47,493 nucleotides of DNA from a virus. The DNA is taken from UHGV virus genome UHGV-0021965; one strand, 5' to 3'. Below are positions 3,001 through 9,000 of this stretch, one piece after another; the first letter of the stretch is position 1, and every line of letters begins with the position of its first letter. Made by a program: the position numbers.

Positions 3001-6000
3001 CGGCACCAATTGAGACGATCGGCGCGTTTGGCTTTTTCCCCATTGATTCGAGGTCAATCATTAAGTCGTTCAACTGCTTTCTCCATTACTAATTCTGCGA
3101 TTAAAGCCGAGGGGACAACCACCGGCATTGGTACTCTGACGAGCTGTGCTCGAACTCTATCGATTACCCCTTACGCTGCTTTATCATAAGCTCTAAAACT
3201 TCCTGGCAACTGGCGCACGTTTTGCAGCCAGGCATTGCAACCCGGCGCGCCTCAGGAATGTCCTCTCCGCATTCTGAACAGTGCTCTGCAGAGACTGCAT
3301 TCTGATCAATACGGTGTTTTTGTATGGCCAGCTGCAGGCGGTGCTCTATCAGCTCGTTTGCCTGATCGATGATGTCTGAACTCATACGGCACGCTCCTGG
3401 CGAAGTAACGCATCATGCAGTGCCATAGCACCCGCTTCACGGAGTGCAGCATCTTCATAACTGATGCCGTTCGACTCCATGATGCAGTCCCTATCGAGGC
3501 ACTCCGAACAATCGTTGAGGGCAGATTTGATAGCGTTGGCACGCACTTCAGCAAGGAAAGCGTCTGTCACCTTGAATGGGTTTTCCGCTTCAACATCGCG
3601 GGAAACGTATGCGTTAATTTCAGATACGTAATCCATCGGCACCGCGGCGTACAGGTACTCGTCCTGGTTGACGTATTCTTCGTGGTTATCACTGATGTCT
3701 GTCAGAAGGCACAGCATTTGACCATTCTCCGCAGCCAATTCAGCAATCCGCTTCTCAGCGTTTGACAGTTGAAGGAGGAGTTCTTCAACTAACGTCACAC
3801 GCATCACTACCTTCTGACAGTCGTTGCGTTTAGCTCTGGCGATTGTGCCGCGCAGAGTCGCGTATTTGTTGGTGGTCATTGGACGGACTCCTGACGAAGA
3901 TGGTTAATTTCGGCGTCAAGGCTCATTCGCTGGTCCATCGATTCCGTCAAGGCGGCAAATGTAACGTCCAGGCGAGTGGCTACCTCACGCATCAGAGAGG
4001 CTTCTGCTGGTGGCAGTTTCCCCGCCGCAGCATGGGCTGCGGCTACCAGTTCTTTTATCTTCATGCGAGGCATGCGCGTGATTCCGTAAGCTCATTGAAA
4101 CGGTTAATGAACAAGCCATATGCCTGGCCTGGGCGAAGAGGAACGATCTGGATAATGTCGCTGGCCGGAATACCTTCGAGGCAAGGCCAGAGTGAGCCGT
4201 CGTCGATATCAAGATCGCGGCGTTCCGTGGCAAGCATCACCAGATCGGCGTATTTCACTACCGCTGACATATCAGGGGTGATGCTGAATTTGGCCCGGAT
4301 CAGCTGTTCTACCCGCTCTTCAATGCGACGGTAATCTGGAAGCAATGCTTTCAGTGGGGTAGGGATGTCCTGGCAATAGGCTTCAGCTGCGTCATGCATC
4401 AGGGCTTCAAAGGCAAACTCTGGCGGCACAATTTGGCTGCACAGTACCGAGTGCTGGGCCACGCTGTAAAATTCCGGCAGATGACCACTGAAGCGGCAGA
4501 TGTGGGAAAGTGCGGTCGCAATATCCTCGATCTCTACGTCGTCAGTGGTTGAATTGAGGTAATCGAATTTCTTACCTGAAAGTGTCTGGATATAACTCAT
4601 CGTATTTTCTTCTCCATATTTGGCAGCTGCACCTGCGCCAGTTTTTGGTTGTACGAATCCCTCGCCATTGGCGATTAATAAAGGGAATTACGCTTCAATA
4701 AATCCCCGCGGCGCCGGGGATTTAATGCAGAGAAATTACGCTTTAAAGTTACCGATAAAGGTTTCAACCGGCTTGTCGGTGAACTTCTCGATCAGCAGGT
4801 CACGGAACTCGTTGGCGATAGCTTCTTCCTGGGCTTCCAGTTGAACGATGCGGAGTACAAACACCGGTTCCCCGCTTTTAAGCAGGCTGTTACGCAGGCT
4901 AAAGCGGCGTTCGCCCAGGCCTTCGTATGGCACGCATTTGAACTCGAAGGCGACAGGCATCACGTCTTTACTGCTGGCTTCAACGCTCTGCATCAGGGAC
5001 TTTCTGCCGCCAAAATCTTCGTCTTCATGAGCTGCTTCCGAGACTTGTTTGATATTGACGCGACGAACAGCACCAGCTGCCTGCGCGATGGACAACACAT
5101 TCCCGTCGGCATCAAATGCGCTCAGGAAGTCGGCCCAGTCCTCCAGCCATTCAGCAATTTCCTTCTGGCCCAGTCGATCGCCATTTACCTGAAGCAGGGC
5201 TCGGAATGGCGCTGTCTTTTTGAGGGTGATAGATGCGACGTTATCAGCATGGCCAGGGTTAGCCAGCGTACCGATGTTGAAGACAGAGCGTGCGGTCATG
5301 TTGTCAGCATCGATAAAGCAGCGCGCTGGTTCGGCTTCGTTGGCGTAGCCTGCGGCGTAACGCACAAAATCAGGAATACTGGTTGTGGTCATGGCGCCAC
5401 GGAAGCGAAAACGCTCCAGCTCGAAACGCTCAAGGCTTTCTACGTGAACCCCTTCAGGAAGCAGGGCAGTCGGGCATGCCGTAACTTTTGCTGCATCCAG
5501 GTGGTAACCGGAAAGAACCAGGTCTTTCACCTGCTGCAGGGCATTTCCGTCTAAAATCTGGGACATAAAATTTCCTTAATATGTGGTCAAAGGGATGTCA
5601 GTGATTTGTCTGCTGCGGATCACTGTGCCGCTTTAAGCTTTCCGTCAACGCCGCCGTTGATCCCGAACAGCTGCCCCTGATCTTCCTGCAGGATGGTCAG
5701 CTTGCCGCCTTTGTTAACCCACATTGGTGTTTCGGTGGTGTCTTCTTCGGAGGCTTTACCGCGCGGGGTTGGGGTGACGTAGTTCAGCTTGTGCTTGATC
5801 TTGACGCGCTTTTCTTCGACGGAGTTACCCATACGCTCAATATCAAAGGTGAGGACTACTTTGCCTTTGGTACCGTTGTTCAGAACGCCAAGCGCGGTAG
5901 TGTTTAAAGCTGCCGCTATCTTGTTCATGAACACGCCGGCATCCAGTTCGCCCAGGAAATCGGGCACTACGGTCATGCGGTCATTACTCATGGTTTAACC

Positions 6001-9000
6001 CTCAGTGAGGCGGCTGCCACCGCCAGTGGAACTTCTCCATACACAACAGAAAAGGGCACCTGCGTAGCACTGACGGCTGCAACCAACATTTCTGCGCCCG
6101 GGTGGATTGGGGAATGAGCCCGTCGCCCGGTGATGCCCTTGTCTCTTGTGTAAAAAAGGTGCCCACCGAAGTGATGGGCAAAGACTACACACAGCAATGA
6201 TTTTGTTGTGGCGGTGGTGCCTCCACCTGCCGGACCGGCCAGAACCGGCGACGCTACACCTCAAGAAACGTATTCATTTCAAATGTTGAAATAAAAACTT
6301 GTTGGCCTCGTCACGTGCGCAGAGCCGCATTACCACAACTGGAAGCGCACTCTTCGGTAACAAACCTGCCCCCGCAGTGAAAGAGAGAAGGAGTGCGCTT
6401 TCACGTTGTGCCCTAAAAAAGCTGGCTGTCACCCTCAAGGGGAAAGTGAGCAGCCAGAACAGGGATCACTTCTTATTGCTTTGGCCTGCTTTTAACCACA
6501 TCAGGCGCGGTGGTAATCGTAGGTACTCTTCACATGGTTTAAATGTACCTTTGGTTACCTTTGTGGTCAAGTTAGGAATGTACTTTTTGTTACCTTGAGG
6601 CGTAAAAAAAAGCCAGATGATCATCCGGCCTTAGAAATGAAGAACTTAGATATTCTGAGTTATCTGAACTACTTTACCAACTATCCGGCAGTTGCCGTCT
6701 ATAGGTATAGGTTTGAATGCAGGATTAAGTGGCATCAGATACGCGAAAGGGCTGTCCCACACGAGTTTTTTCACCGTTGCTTCTGCAGAACCATCTAGTA
6801 TTGCCACGACTATTTTTCCGTAAAGGTCATCCAGTTGGCCATAGTGCGGTTCAACGATTACGATCGACCCTTCTGGAATAGATGGTAGACCATGTGGGTT
6901 AGTCATAGATTCCCCACGAACAACTAGACCGAATACTTCATCAGAAACATTTGCAGTGGTTTGCGTCCATGAAATCACATCAGAAAGCCTTGAGCATGAG
7001 TAAGTATCAGTCCAAGTCCCTGCCTGAACAGCTGAGATAATTGGAACTGCTTTAGGTGGTTTGAGGAAGGGGATAACTTTGGTGTCATCCTGTGCTTCAT
7101 CACCTTTTCCGTAAAGAATCCATTCAGGAGTGGTCTGCAACGCCATCGCCAGTTGATGAAGATTTTCACCATCAGGCTTCGTTGTACCGCTCTCCCATTT
7201 AGTAACGGACACCCGGCTAACGCCTAGGCGTTTAGCTAGGGTCTGCTGCGTTATATCGAGTTGGACTCGACGGGATCTTATTCGGTCTTTCATCTCTGTT
7301 TTCATGTAACCAATGTTACATTGATTCCTTGTAACTGTTGTTTGCTATTTAATGTACCTTTTGTTACCTTTAAGGCATAAGTTAACTAGGAGGAACCATG
7401 CATAAATCAGAAGTCATAGAGCACTTTGGCGGTGTATCAAAAACCGCAAGTGTTCTTGGGATCTCCCACCCGGCAGTTTGCCGATGGGGTGAGGTAATTC
7501 CTCAGAAGCAAGCGTTCGTTATCGAACGAATTACTGAAGGCAAGCTTAAGTACGACGCCAGCCTTTATGAGAAGCCTACAGAGTAGGTTTATGGAAAGAA
7601 ACCACAGATATAAGGGGTTAGCCGTGGGTAAAGAAATTACTGTAATAAACGATGGAGCAACCATTTCGATTGCCCCGATAACGTTAGCTTTCGCTAACCA
7701 ATTGTTGATGAGCTTTGAAGGATGCGAATTGCATTCGACCTTCGGCATTAATGCCGACACCATGCCCCACGCACCAGGAGATGAACTCGGCTGTCTCAGC
7801 CTCAGCTTTAATAACTCTTTGTCCTTGCCGTTCGAGACGCTTAATCAATTTTTCGGCATCACGCTTCCAGTCGGTATAGCTATCAGCCAAAACGTCAGCA
7901 TCACTAAAAATCTTTTTGAATTCATGGTACTGAAGTGCATCACGGAACCAGAAAATACCTACCGCCTGAACCTTCATGTCAAGTCTCCTTCTCTCCTTGG
8001 TTGTTGAAATTCCAGATTATCACCAGGGGAATATTTTGCACCAGCAAAGGTAGATACAAATGAATGAACCGCAATGGAAAGTTGATAAACAGCCAACTTG
8101 GCTGGTAGCTGCAATTAAAAAAACAATCACAGAGCTGCCTGGTGGATATTCCGAAGCTGCAGAGTGGTTGGATGTGACCGAGAACGCGCTATTTAACCGG
8201 CTGCGTACCGATGGCGATCAGATTTTCCCGCTCGGTTGGGCGATGGTGCTTCAACGTGCTGGTGGTTCAAACCACATAGCGAACGCTATTGCACGTCACT
8301 CGAACGGTGTTTTCGTGCCATTGGCTGAGGTCGAAGAAATTGAGAACGGTGATATCAACCAGCGTCTTATGGAGTCAGTGGAGTGGATCGGCAGGCATTC
8401 GCAATACGTTCGTAAAGCTACCGCTGACGGCGTTATTGATGAGCAAGAACGTGCCCAGATTGAAGAGAACAGCTATCAGGTGATGGCTAAATGGCAGGAA
8501 CATTTAACGCTGCTTTTCCGTGTGTTTTGTGCGCCGGAAAAGAGTGACGCCCGCGAGTGTGCAGCTCCGGGCGTCGTGGCAGACAAATCTTGTATGGAGA
8601 AGTAATCCGCATGACCAGTTTAACGGCTTTTAACCGTTTACCGCAACTCAGGATGATCCCGGTACCGGGCGCTCCGTTGTTTCGGTATGAACGCAGAATA
8701 GCAAACCGCTGGGTGCCATGTAACCACAGTCGGGCGGGCGCAATTGTGGGGGTTTACTACAGGAAGGCGAAACGCTTATGCGCGAAGTTAACCGAAGGTT
8801 CAAAGACCACAGAGGGATCCCCGTTCGGGTTATCAGGTGGGAGCCAGAGACTCAACGAGTTATCTACTTGCGGGATGGTTATAACCACGAATGTTTCAGC
8901 CCGCTCGAACAATTCAAGCGCAAGTTTACAGAGTTAAAGGACGACCATGAGCACTAAATTAACAGGTTACGTTTGGGACGCTTGTGCCGCTTCTGGCATG

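Follow-up and report, generated by a model that had tools for sequence, protein, structure and literature searches.

The leftward early transcript of the lambdoid prophage contained in UHGV virus genome UHGV-0021965 (47,493 nucleotides (nt) in all, hereafter the window) runs for about 545 nt from its start, which promoter spacing would place near position 6535, to the ATG of its first gene at 5991, and it raises the question of what so long a leader is for. A preliminary description had read this stretch as free of credible open reading frames (ORFs) and dense in hairpins, and had proposed an RNA-based control of early gene expression, either by a cis-acting antitermination RNA of the put type of HK022 or by a small regulatory RNA (sRNA). 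The leader is indeed untranslated; it is a chain of RNA modules, homologous to the leaders of Qin dicBF and of e14 and SfV. With moderate confidence, we interpret it as the pL-operon leader of an N-less, SfV/e14-like lambdoid prophage, made of exchangeable modules as in Qin dicBF, from which an RprA-like sRNA is produced; the phage would probably make its own version of the host regulator RprA in this way. RprA is an Rcs-induced, Hfq-dependent sRNA of the Enterobacteriaceae, with rpoS, csgD, ydaM, hdeD, ricI, and narP among its targets. The modules, in the order in which they would be transcribed, are the following.

6484-6514, minus strand: M1, a promoter-proximal element of 31 nt, ACCACCGCGCCUGAUGUGGUUAAAAGCAGGC, at about +22 to +52 of the pL transcript, delimited by sequence conservation
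6415-6483, minus strand: conserved single-stranded stretch CAAAGCAAUAAGAAGUGAUCCCUGUU (6483-6458) and terminator t1 (stem 6457-6422, six U residues at 6420-6415; -22.8 kcal/mol)
6336-6410, minus strand: M3, a long hairpin (5' arm 6408-6390, 3' arm 6353-6336), delimited by covariation and folding
6199-6344, minus strand: STnc100-like scaffold domain, delimited by covariation and a covariance model
6152-6198, minus strand: RprA-like cassette of 47 nt, with core AUUGCUGUGUGUAGUCUUUGCCC (6198-6176), stem of terminator t2 (6180-6160), and six U residues (6157-6152), recognized with Rfam and by comparison with rprA
6040-6152, minus strand: M6, a stem of about 19 base pairs (6152-6132 with 6060-6040) enclosing a variable insert, delimited by covariation and folding

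The cassette is where the leader meets a known host regulator. A run of 26 consecutive nt, AUUGCUGUGUGUAGUCUUUGCCCAUC, which includes the 23-nt core, is identical to E. coli RprA, and the identity starts at the 5' end of the processed form of that RNA. The processed form, RprAproc, corresponds to the last 47 nt of RprA and is active on its own (PMC9262595). The phage cassette equals it in position and core, while the hairpin loop and the 3' arm differ, with compensating changes. The single-stranded 3' seed, AUUGCUGUGUGUAGUCUUUGCC, is followed, as in RprA, by a Rho-independent terminator with a GC-rich hairpin and a U run; this terminator, t2, has a predicted energy of -16.8 kcal/mol (z = -3.5, where z compares the fold energy with that of shuffled sequences). 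The stretch complementary to csgD lies within the core. The 5' untranslated region (UTR) of csgD in K-12 contains ACUACACACAGCAGUG, fully complementary to the seed, and the duplex is predicted at -27.4 kcal/mol for the phage seed vs. -25.4 kcal/mol for that of E. coli RprA, values that apply to K-12 csgD, from which the host of the window may differ. Cassette RNA is thus predicted to pair with csgD mRNA as RprA does.

The remainder of RprA has no counterpart. The phage cassette sits within a pL leader, after an STnc100-like scaffold, and lacks the rprA-type promoter, the 5' hairpin, and the central region, which in RprA pairs with rpoS; a consensus scan of the leader upstream of the cassette revealed no promoter-like site that could stand for the RcsB-dependent one. 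The RprA model of Rfam (RF00034) matches 6151-6287 on the minus strand with 44.7 bits, for a gathering score of 70, but only the 3' part is aligned with high posterior probability, the central region being replaced by a 49-nt insert. An A/U hairpin at 6298-6270 resembles hairpin 1 of RprA and was considered as a sign of full-length homology. This candidate was rejected: cassettes without any 5' similarity score the same or higher (45-54 bits), and the resemblance is therefore probably due to chance.

How widely the core is distributed was determined by an exact search of the IMG/VR contigs, in which the 23-mer occurs in at least 120 viral contigs. The loci that were fetched hold 128 instances of the core in 80 flanking contexts and followed by 43 different terminator hairpins, with a run of at least five U residues after the core in all but one of the 128 instances among the matches listed. 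The sequence directly upstream of the core is unrelated between contexts. Most of the core contigs listed have a cI-like gene (27-99% identity) 400-1100 nt upstream on the same strand; the cassette thus recurs in the pL leaders of phages that differ in immunity. Among isolated phages, it is carried by Flotzy, LLS, Eeyore, and SfV. In SfV and e14, the seed, in the form UGCUGUGUGUAGUC, rides on a DicF-like hairpin, and at least 80% of a 111-nt query from this version is covered in 1,835 of 5,426 complete E. coli genomes, i.e., about a third. Different seeds are found behind the same scaffold, namely the RprA core in the window, CCAUGCCAGUGCAAUCUUUGCCC in locus L232, and DicF, or DicF with an altered 5' part, in loci L130 and L144.

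This distribution bears on a more modest view of the cassette, according to which the RprA-like stretch is a host rprA terminator acquired passively, or just a handy strong terminator, with no role in trans, the leader then acting in cis only, by attenuation and RNase III control of the early-left genes. Phages do recombine with host DNA, the match is short (47 nt) and below the Rfam gathering score, no target was found within the phage, and the long double strands of M3 and M6 are like the stems that RNase III cuts in phage leaders. However, the part that is kept is the single-stranded seed, whereas the loop and 3' arm, which belong to the terminator, have been replaced repeatedly. SfV and e14 retain the seed on a DicF-like terminator, and virulent Erwinia phages and Klebsiella plasmids have the same seed behind unrelated genes. 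A seed that is kept while its hairpin is replaced is what selection on base-pairing predicts, and we regard passive acquisition as quite improbable.

The occurrences outside lambdoid leaders are as follows. In the virulent, N4-like Erwinia phage Ea9-2 (L247, 700-745), the RprA core and a terminator directly follow the thymidylate synthase gene, and in the K. pneumoniae plasmid pS161-2.2 (IncFIB/IncHI1B; L248, 1500-1545), they follow a small ORF. BLAST searches also place the core in jumbo Erwinia phages and in about 100 Klebsiella and Raoultella plasmids. In yet another type of element (L004, 1-854; L039, L100, L011, and L016), RprA-like cassettes lie amid arrays of short hairpins whose stems vary while the GAAAGA loop stays constant (e.g., GCGG-GAAAGA-CCGC). 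These loops resemble lambda boxB, and their AAAGAC is complementary to GUCUUU of the seed.

The interpretation of the cassette as an sRNA gene draws further on its slot in the leader. In sister leaders with the same M1 and M3, DicF occupies the place of the cassette, with 72.5 bits, above the Rfam gathering score, and a sub-threshold STnc100 match adjoins it. In Qin of K-12, the order is dicBp, ydfABC, a long hairpin (GAAAGCGCA...GUGCGCUUCC GGUUGUGG), the scaffold, DicF with its terminator, an STnc100-like domain, and dicB. The promoter dicBp is pL-like and repressed by DicA, and DicF arises from the polycistronic transcript as an RNase III-dependent species of 190 nt and an RNase E-dependent species of 53 nt (bioRxiv 10.1101/2023.04.14.536235). 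The whole DicF-type architecture, i.e., a repressor-controlled pL-like promoter, a long hairpin upstream, a scaffold with a closing helix, and a seed with its terminator in the early leader, is present in the window. The two leaders share a pL-like promoter under a cI-like repressor, M3, a scaffold closure of the GUUGUGG type, a single-stranded seed with an intrinsic terminator, and an STnc100-like domain. They differ in that the seed and terminator sequences are unrelated, ydfABC is missing from the window, the STnc100-like domain precedes the cassette instead of following it as it does DicF in Qin, and the window has an additional terminator, t1. The DicF model (RF00039) finds no match in the window at expectation values (E) up to 10, compared with 59-77 bits in the sister loci and Qin.

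The scaffold is closed by a helix between GUUGUGG (6339-6333) and CCACAAC (6211-6205), and contains a hairpin at 6328-6313, a variable arm, and a hairpin GGUGG-AGGCA-CCACC at 6227-6213; an A/U-rich linker (6204-6199) follows. The closing helix, the second hairpin, and the AGGCA-loop hairpin covary across ten diverse sequences. Nine domains of this kind (Qin-like, SfV, e14, and others), with the window's own cluster left out, went into a covariance model, R1, which scores the window at 40.5 bits (rough E 2.7e-8) at 6344-6199 on the minus strand, the next match having 11.7 bits. The STnc100-like scaffold was thus recognized by a model independent of the window's cluster. The Rfam model of STnc100 (RF02076, gathering score 47 bits) gives no match to the window even when E values up to 10 are allowed. 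With it, SfV, L232, and Qin reach 34-44 bits, below the gathering score, and in SfV and L232 the scaffold together with the following seed and terminator is aligned as a full-length STnc100. What the window shares with STnc100 is a structured 5' domain with a long closing helix, a AAUGCGGCU..GCGCAC hairpin, and a CCnGG-AGGCA-CCnGG hairpin, after which come single-stranded sequence and a terminator; the central arm differs, and the 3' seed is RprA-like instead of the STnc100 consensus. PasD and STnc100 similarly have different seeds on a shared fold (bioRxiv 10.64898/2026.05.13.724894). T-arm-like hairpins in some relatives had suggested that the scaffold might be a tRNA. That candidate was dropped: ARAGORN found none in the window, and among 11 related loci it made a single call, a tRNA-Ser in L177, which lies elsewhere in that locus.

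The hairpins around the cassette are conserved as RNA. M3 has 17 pairs, six of them with compensatory changes in an alignment that includes Qin, and is more stable than any shuffled sequence (z = -3.1). M3 is homologous to the hairpin that precedes DicF in Qin, in which the RNase III-dependent 190-nt species would begin; the RNase III site was placed in the 3' arm of the Qin hairpin by arithmetic, counting 190 nt back from the 3' end of DicF, and is not a mapped site. None of the 19 pairs of M6 is broken in 12 sequences, three are compensatory, several are G-U wobbles, and again no shuffle is as stable (z = -3.8). M6 starts within the U run of t2 and makes up the 5' UTR of the first gene; a BLAST search detects the block that is its 5' arm in about 2,490 of the 5,426 complete genomes of E. 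coli. As a G-U pair would become a C-A mismatch in RNA of the opposite strand, these helices belong to the leftward RNA. None of 200 shuffles was as stable as t1 (z = -3.9), and two variants of its stem were found behind the same single-stranded stretch; M1 and t1 together would yield a primary transcript of about 121 nt. For M1, M3, t1, and M6, Rfam reports nothing in the window or in 13 related loci.

Compensatory changes in homologous stems, which the preliminary description had named as a check on its proposal, were therefore found in M3, the scaffold, and M6, and both of its hairpin-plus-U-run structures proved far more stable than shuffled sequences. Its mutually exclusive pairings fared unevenly. 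Both are present where it had placed them, and AAGCGCACTC/GAGTGCGCTT is conserved and covaries, but GTGAAAG/CTTTCAC (6377-6404) is absent from the minimum-energy fold and is lost in homologues, and was discarded. A different alternative is conserved instead, in which GUUGUGG (6339-6333) pairs either with CACAAC (6410-6405), extending M3, or with CCACAAC (6211-6205), closing the scaffold.

Might the leader nevertheless encode one or several small proteins, e.g., in the 89-amino-acid (aa) frame at 5995-6264 or in the frames annotated in Flotzy? ORFs of 52-89 aa do exist on the minus strand, three coding sequences were called by the annotators of Flotzy, ymfH is annotated over the homologous e14 stretch of K-12, and one frame matches phrog_33599, of unknown function, over 21 residues. 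These residues are exactly the 5' arm of the covarying M6 stem, however, and no leader ORF has a Pfam match. The frames have TTG starts, or start inside or run through terminators, without ribosome-binding sites. The 89-aa frame, as had been noted, starts with TTG and crosses a terminator hairpin and its U run. Between homologous leaders, moreover, there are indels of lengths not divisible by three, as well as compensatory changes at paired positions. We consider it very improbable that any such protein is made, and the early claim of some 540 nt without a credible ORF is borne out.

Several annotations are nevertheless affected by these frames. The 89-aa TTG frame (5995-6264, minus strand) is in frame with the first gene, from whose ATG only TAA ACC separates it, which probably explains the longer 'YfdP' annotations in some phage records. 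The three 'hypothetical protein' coding sequences in the homologous leader of phage Flotzy (L001, 2389-3015; PP925827) are probably spurious, and one of them begins at a TTG within the RprA-like core. In e14 of K-12 (L251, 1408-1600; NC_000913, about 1,201,069-1,201,380), the coding sequence ymfH overlaps M1, an STnc100-like domain, the seed AUGCUGUGUGUAGUCUUGGCGG with a DicF-like terminator, and M6. ymfH is thus probably an RNA feature and not a protein gene.

Two intrinsic terminators separate pL from 5.4 kb of early-left genes, and how polymerases pass them is the next question. HK022 put RNA consists of two stem-loops of about 70 nt and works via the zinc-binding domain of the RNA polymerase beta' subunit. 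Located directly after pL, it enables RNA polymerase to read through terminators with no help from a phage protein (PMC9378689). The leader of the window does not contain it: local alignment of HK022 putL with the leader gives a score of 22, vs. 16.5 +/- 2.3 (maximum 27) for shuffled putL and 72-78 for sister phages that have put, and Rfam reports no put-like match. Apart from a position just after pL, the only likeness is the 11-mer TTTAAACCATG, which overlaps the -10/+1 region. Lambda-type signals are likewise missing, with no boxA or boxB in the leader, a first gene that is phrog_204/YfdP-like, and no N-like family among the early-left ORFs in PHROG and family searches, the last as initially noted. 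Of the two forms of RNA control first envisaged, the put-type one is thus not upheld, and the covariance search suggested at the time yielded the sub-threshold RprA match but nothing put-like; the sRNA form gains from a seed-plus-terminator cassette whose 23-nt core is identical to RprA.

M1 deserves separate consideration in this context. At least 120 further viral contigs contain it, in every case directly behind a promoter/operator region, although these regions vary from phage to phage. It is nearly invariant in sequence, loops included; about one third of the M1 leaders, among the matches listed, carry the RprA-like seed. Sister phages with the same cassette have in its position either a putL homologue (L009, L012, L087, and L096) or boxA, CGCTCTTTAACAA (L017, L022, and L071). 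A terminator-like site lies within 500 nt after M1 in 36 of 73 distinct leaders, vs. 10-18 of 73 in three control regions. M1 could possibly form an H-type pseudoknot, to judge from the complementarity of CCAC with GUGG and of GCCUG with CAGGC. The element is so invariant that covariation offers a single informative variant, L046, in which both strands of the possible second helix are changed, and its nested fold is not significant relative to shuffles (z = +0.25).

One might then propose that the leader acts mainly by processive antitermination in cis, through a put homologue or with M1 as a new put- or nut-like element that carries polymerases past t1 and t2, the cassette being a mere terminator to be crossed. 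The two terminators ahead of the operon without an N-like protein, the place of M1 where sister phages have putL or boxA, its conservation behind quite different operators, and the enrichment of terminator-like sites after it are all in line with this proposal. Yet put is absent, and M1 is only 31 nt long and has no second copy in the pR operon or elsewhere in the window, whereas put and nut come as left and right pairs. Furthermore, the evidence for its structure amounts to one covarying variant and a nested fold within the shuffle range, M1 is degenerate in Qin and DicF is made there all the same, and a 23-nt RprA core kept in front of 43 terminators is left unexplained. We hold this proposal to be unlikely. 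Leaky termination is a simpler alternative for passing t1 and t2, and in t2 a CC separates the stem from the U run.

Several observations concern M1 and putL leaders in other loci. In L009, L012, L087, and L096 (IMG/VR), clear putL homologues (CAAGTCGAACGGCGCGACTCTAAACCATGCGTCGG...) after the early promoter are followed by a small ORF, and directly after its stop comes the RprA-like cassette; in front of the cassette stands CCCCUGAAUCAUCC, which is similar to central RprA sequence. In L139, L170, L226, L229, L232, L016, and e14 (L251, 1300-1335), M1 is preceded by a divergent gene, and the intergenic region contains a conserved CUGG(C/U)UGUGUGAGAAC..CCAG. On the opposite strand, this places CUCACACAGCC beside the ribosome-binding site of the divergent gene. 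As an 8-nt complement of the RprA-like seed, CUCACACAGCC may possibly be a target encoded next to the cassette, in an arrangement that is absent from the window. In the M1-bearing contig L197 (3501-3689), a C4 antisense RNA and isrK exceed their gathering scores, with 81.8 and 64.8 bits, respectively. This phage, whose leader is SfV-like, therefore has a pair of immunity RNAs of the P1/P7 type.

For the reading that we favour, in which the leader delivers an RprA-like sRNA, a sequence of events may be proposed. Once the cI-like repressor leaves pL, polymerase would transcribe M1 and meet t1, and a stop there would release an RNA of about 121 nt. Polymerases that go past t1 would transcribe M3, the STnc100-like scaffold, the single-stranded seed, and t2. 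By analogy with DicF, termination at t2 combined with an RNase III cut in M3 and an RNase E cut in the A/U-rich linker would give rise to species of about 185-190 nt and about 50 nt. The shorter one would be a copy of processed RprA, with the same 23-nt seed on a different Hfq-type terminator, and it could act in trans on the RprA targets of the host, among which csgD mRNA has a fully complementary site. Transcripts that read through would carry the 19-base-pair stem in their 5' UTR and express the early-left genes through int. The anatomy, conservation, and covariation of the modules, the identity of the core to RprA, the equivalence in position with DicF, and the lack of put are shown by the sequences; we infer that the RNAs accumulate, are cut at these sites, bind Hfq, and regulate targets, as well as how t1 and t2 are passed.

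What supports an sRNA is the retention of the seed over 43 terminators, the presence of DicF in the same slot, the score of the scaffold (E about 3e-8), and covariation. A number of points weigh on the other side. The exact-match search fixes the seed by construction, making its invariance across contigs in part a selection effect, and SfV and e14, which were found independently, keep only UGCUGUGUGUAGUC of it. The RprA match stays below the gathering threshold of the full-length model, and the 5' two thirds of RprA, including the part that pairs with rpoS, are absent from the leader. t1 looks strong and lies upstream, such that little transcription may reach the cassette unless t1 is suppressed, and the CC between stem and U run is a flaw in t2 itself. 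Within the prophage, 8- to 10-mers complementary to the seed are no commoner than for shuffled seeds. The csgD pairing was predicted on K-12 sequence and may not carry over to the host of the window, and expression of the cassette is a prediction from its sequence.

The setting of the leader is that of a lambdoid immunity region, with the following features around it.

6646-7305, minus strand: cI-like repressor gene of the LexA/S24 type, found by ORF and family searches
6601-6632, minus strand: intrinsic terminator of the cI-like gene (stem 6632-6609, then a U run; -12 kcal/mol, z = -2.5)
6539-6597, no strand assigned: two operator copies, AATGTACCTTTGGTTACCTT, at 6539-6562 and 6574-6597, overlapping pL and belonging to a direct-repeat family of 20-24 nt
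6542-6570, minus strand: pL-like promoter, TTGACC-17-TACATT, -35 at 6570-6565 and -10 at 6547-6542, found by consensus scan
5989-6004, minus strand: Shine-Dalgarno sequence GAGGG and ATG (at 5991) of the first early-left gene
5620-5991, minus strand: first early-left gene, 123 aa, phrog_204, YfdP-like, found by ORF and family searches
1130-2299: integrase gene, at the end of the leftward operon
7398-7586, plus strand: cro-like gene
8060-8605, plus strand: CII-like gene
14411-15124, plus strand: Q-like antiterminator gene
47418-47493 (the last 76 nt), minus strand: 3' end of a transfer-messenger RNA (tmRNA), RF00023, 72 bits, cut by the end of the window

The pL-like promoter, overlapped by two operator copies as first described, is the only sigma-70-like site between 5400 and 7600, and further operator copies lie on the pR/pRM side (direct at 7348-7371, inverted at 7306-7332). 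After the YfdP-like gene come a DUF2303/YfdQ-like gene, an HD hydrolase gene, an exonuclease gene, and the integrase gene. The tmRNA 3' end at the window edge is consistent with integration at ssrA, and the prophage thus probably occupies the ssrA attachment site; a 322-aa ORF with a single PHROG match, of unknown function, adjoins it, and the integrase gene is at the opposite end. On the whole, the initial observation stands as to the promoter, the operators, the ORF-free leader, and its terminators, and falls short as to the GTGAAAG/CTTTCAC pairing. The terminator at 6601-6632 belongs to the cI transcript and not to the leader. The 3' end of cI is also where svsR, an sRNA of the SfV-like prophage NC-SV, has been placed (PMC12803456). 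In the window, the cI 3' end with its terminator (6601-6645, minus strand) occupies that position. svsR, the Pas sRNAs of the late region, and C0293, located elsewhere in e14, were all considered and are elements different from the cassette.

Other prophage RNAs that come from phage transcription units and act on the Hfq network of the host include the anti-sRNAs AgvB and AsxR as well as StxS (PMC4104026, PMC7547250). AgvB mimics a target and sponges a host sRNA, while the phage of the window copies the sRNA seed itself, and its RNA would therefore be an agonist of the RprA regulon. StxS is made at pR', and the cassette lies at pL. In the literature, which we covered incompletely, we found no description of an RprA-like RNA on phages or plasmids. 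An RprA-like seed in such a leader and its spread over mobile elements thus appear to be undescribed so far, the leader type itself being known from DicF and STnc100.

Taken further, these results suggest a broader picture, which we put forward tentatively and with some doubt. Mobile elements as diverse as lambdoid prophages, virulent N4-like and jumbo Erwinia phages, and Klebsiella plasmids may repeatedly have captured the RprAproc module. pL leaders may serve as a plug-in platform in which M3 and the scaffold present exchangeable seeds of the DicF, STnc100, RprA-like, or other types. About a third of E. coli, K-12 included via e14 'ymfH', might carry a second, phage-controlled csgD-binding seed, and M1 might be a third promoter-proximal antitermination signal beside nut and put. 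Prophage induction would in that case be tied to the Rcs/curli/biofilm network. The reading of the leader that we favour unites DicF, STnc100/PasD, and the RprA-like RNA in one modular leader design, and implies that several annotated 'hypothetical proteins', ymfH among them, are RNA features. It can be tested directly, since K-12 holds the related e14 version and isolated phages carry the cassette. RprA links envelope stress sensed by Rcs to RpoS, to curli and biofilm formation through csgD and ydaM, to acid resistance, and to plasmid transfer. A phage-made copy of the active 3' part of RprA would provide a clear case of a mobile element that copies a core sRNA seed instead of sponging an sRNA. 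A prophage could then switch on part of the RprA regulon from pL, independently of Rcs.

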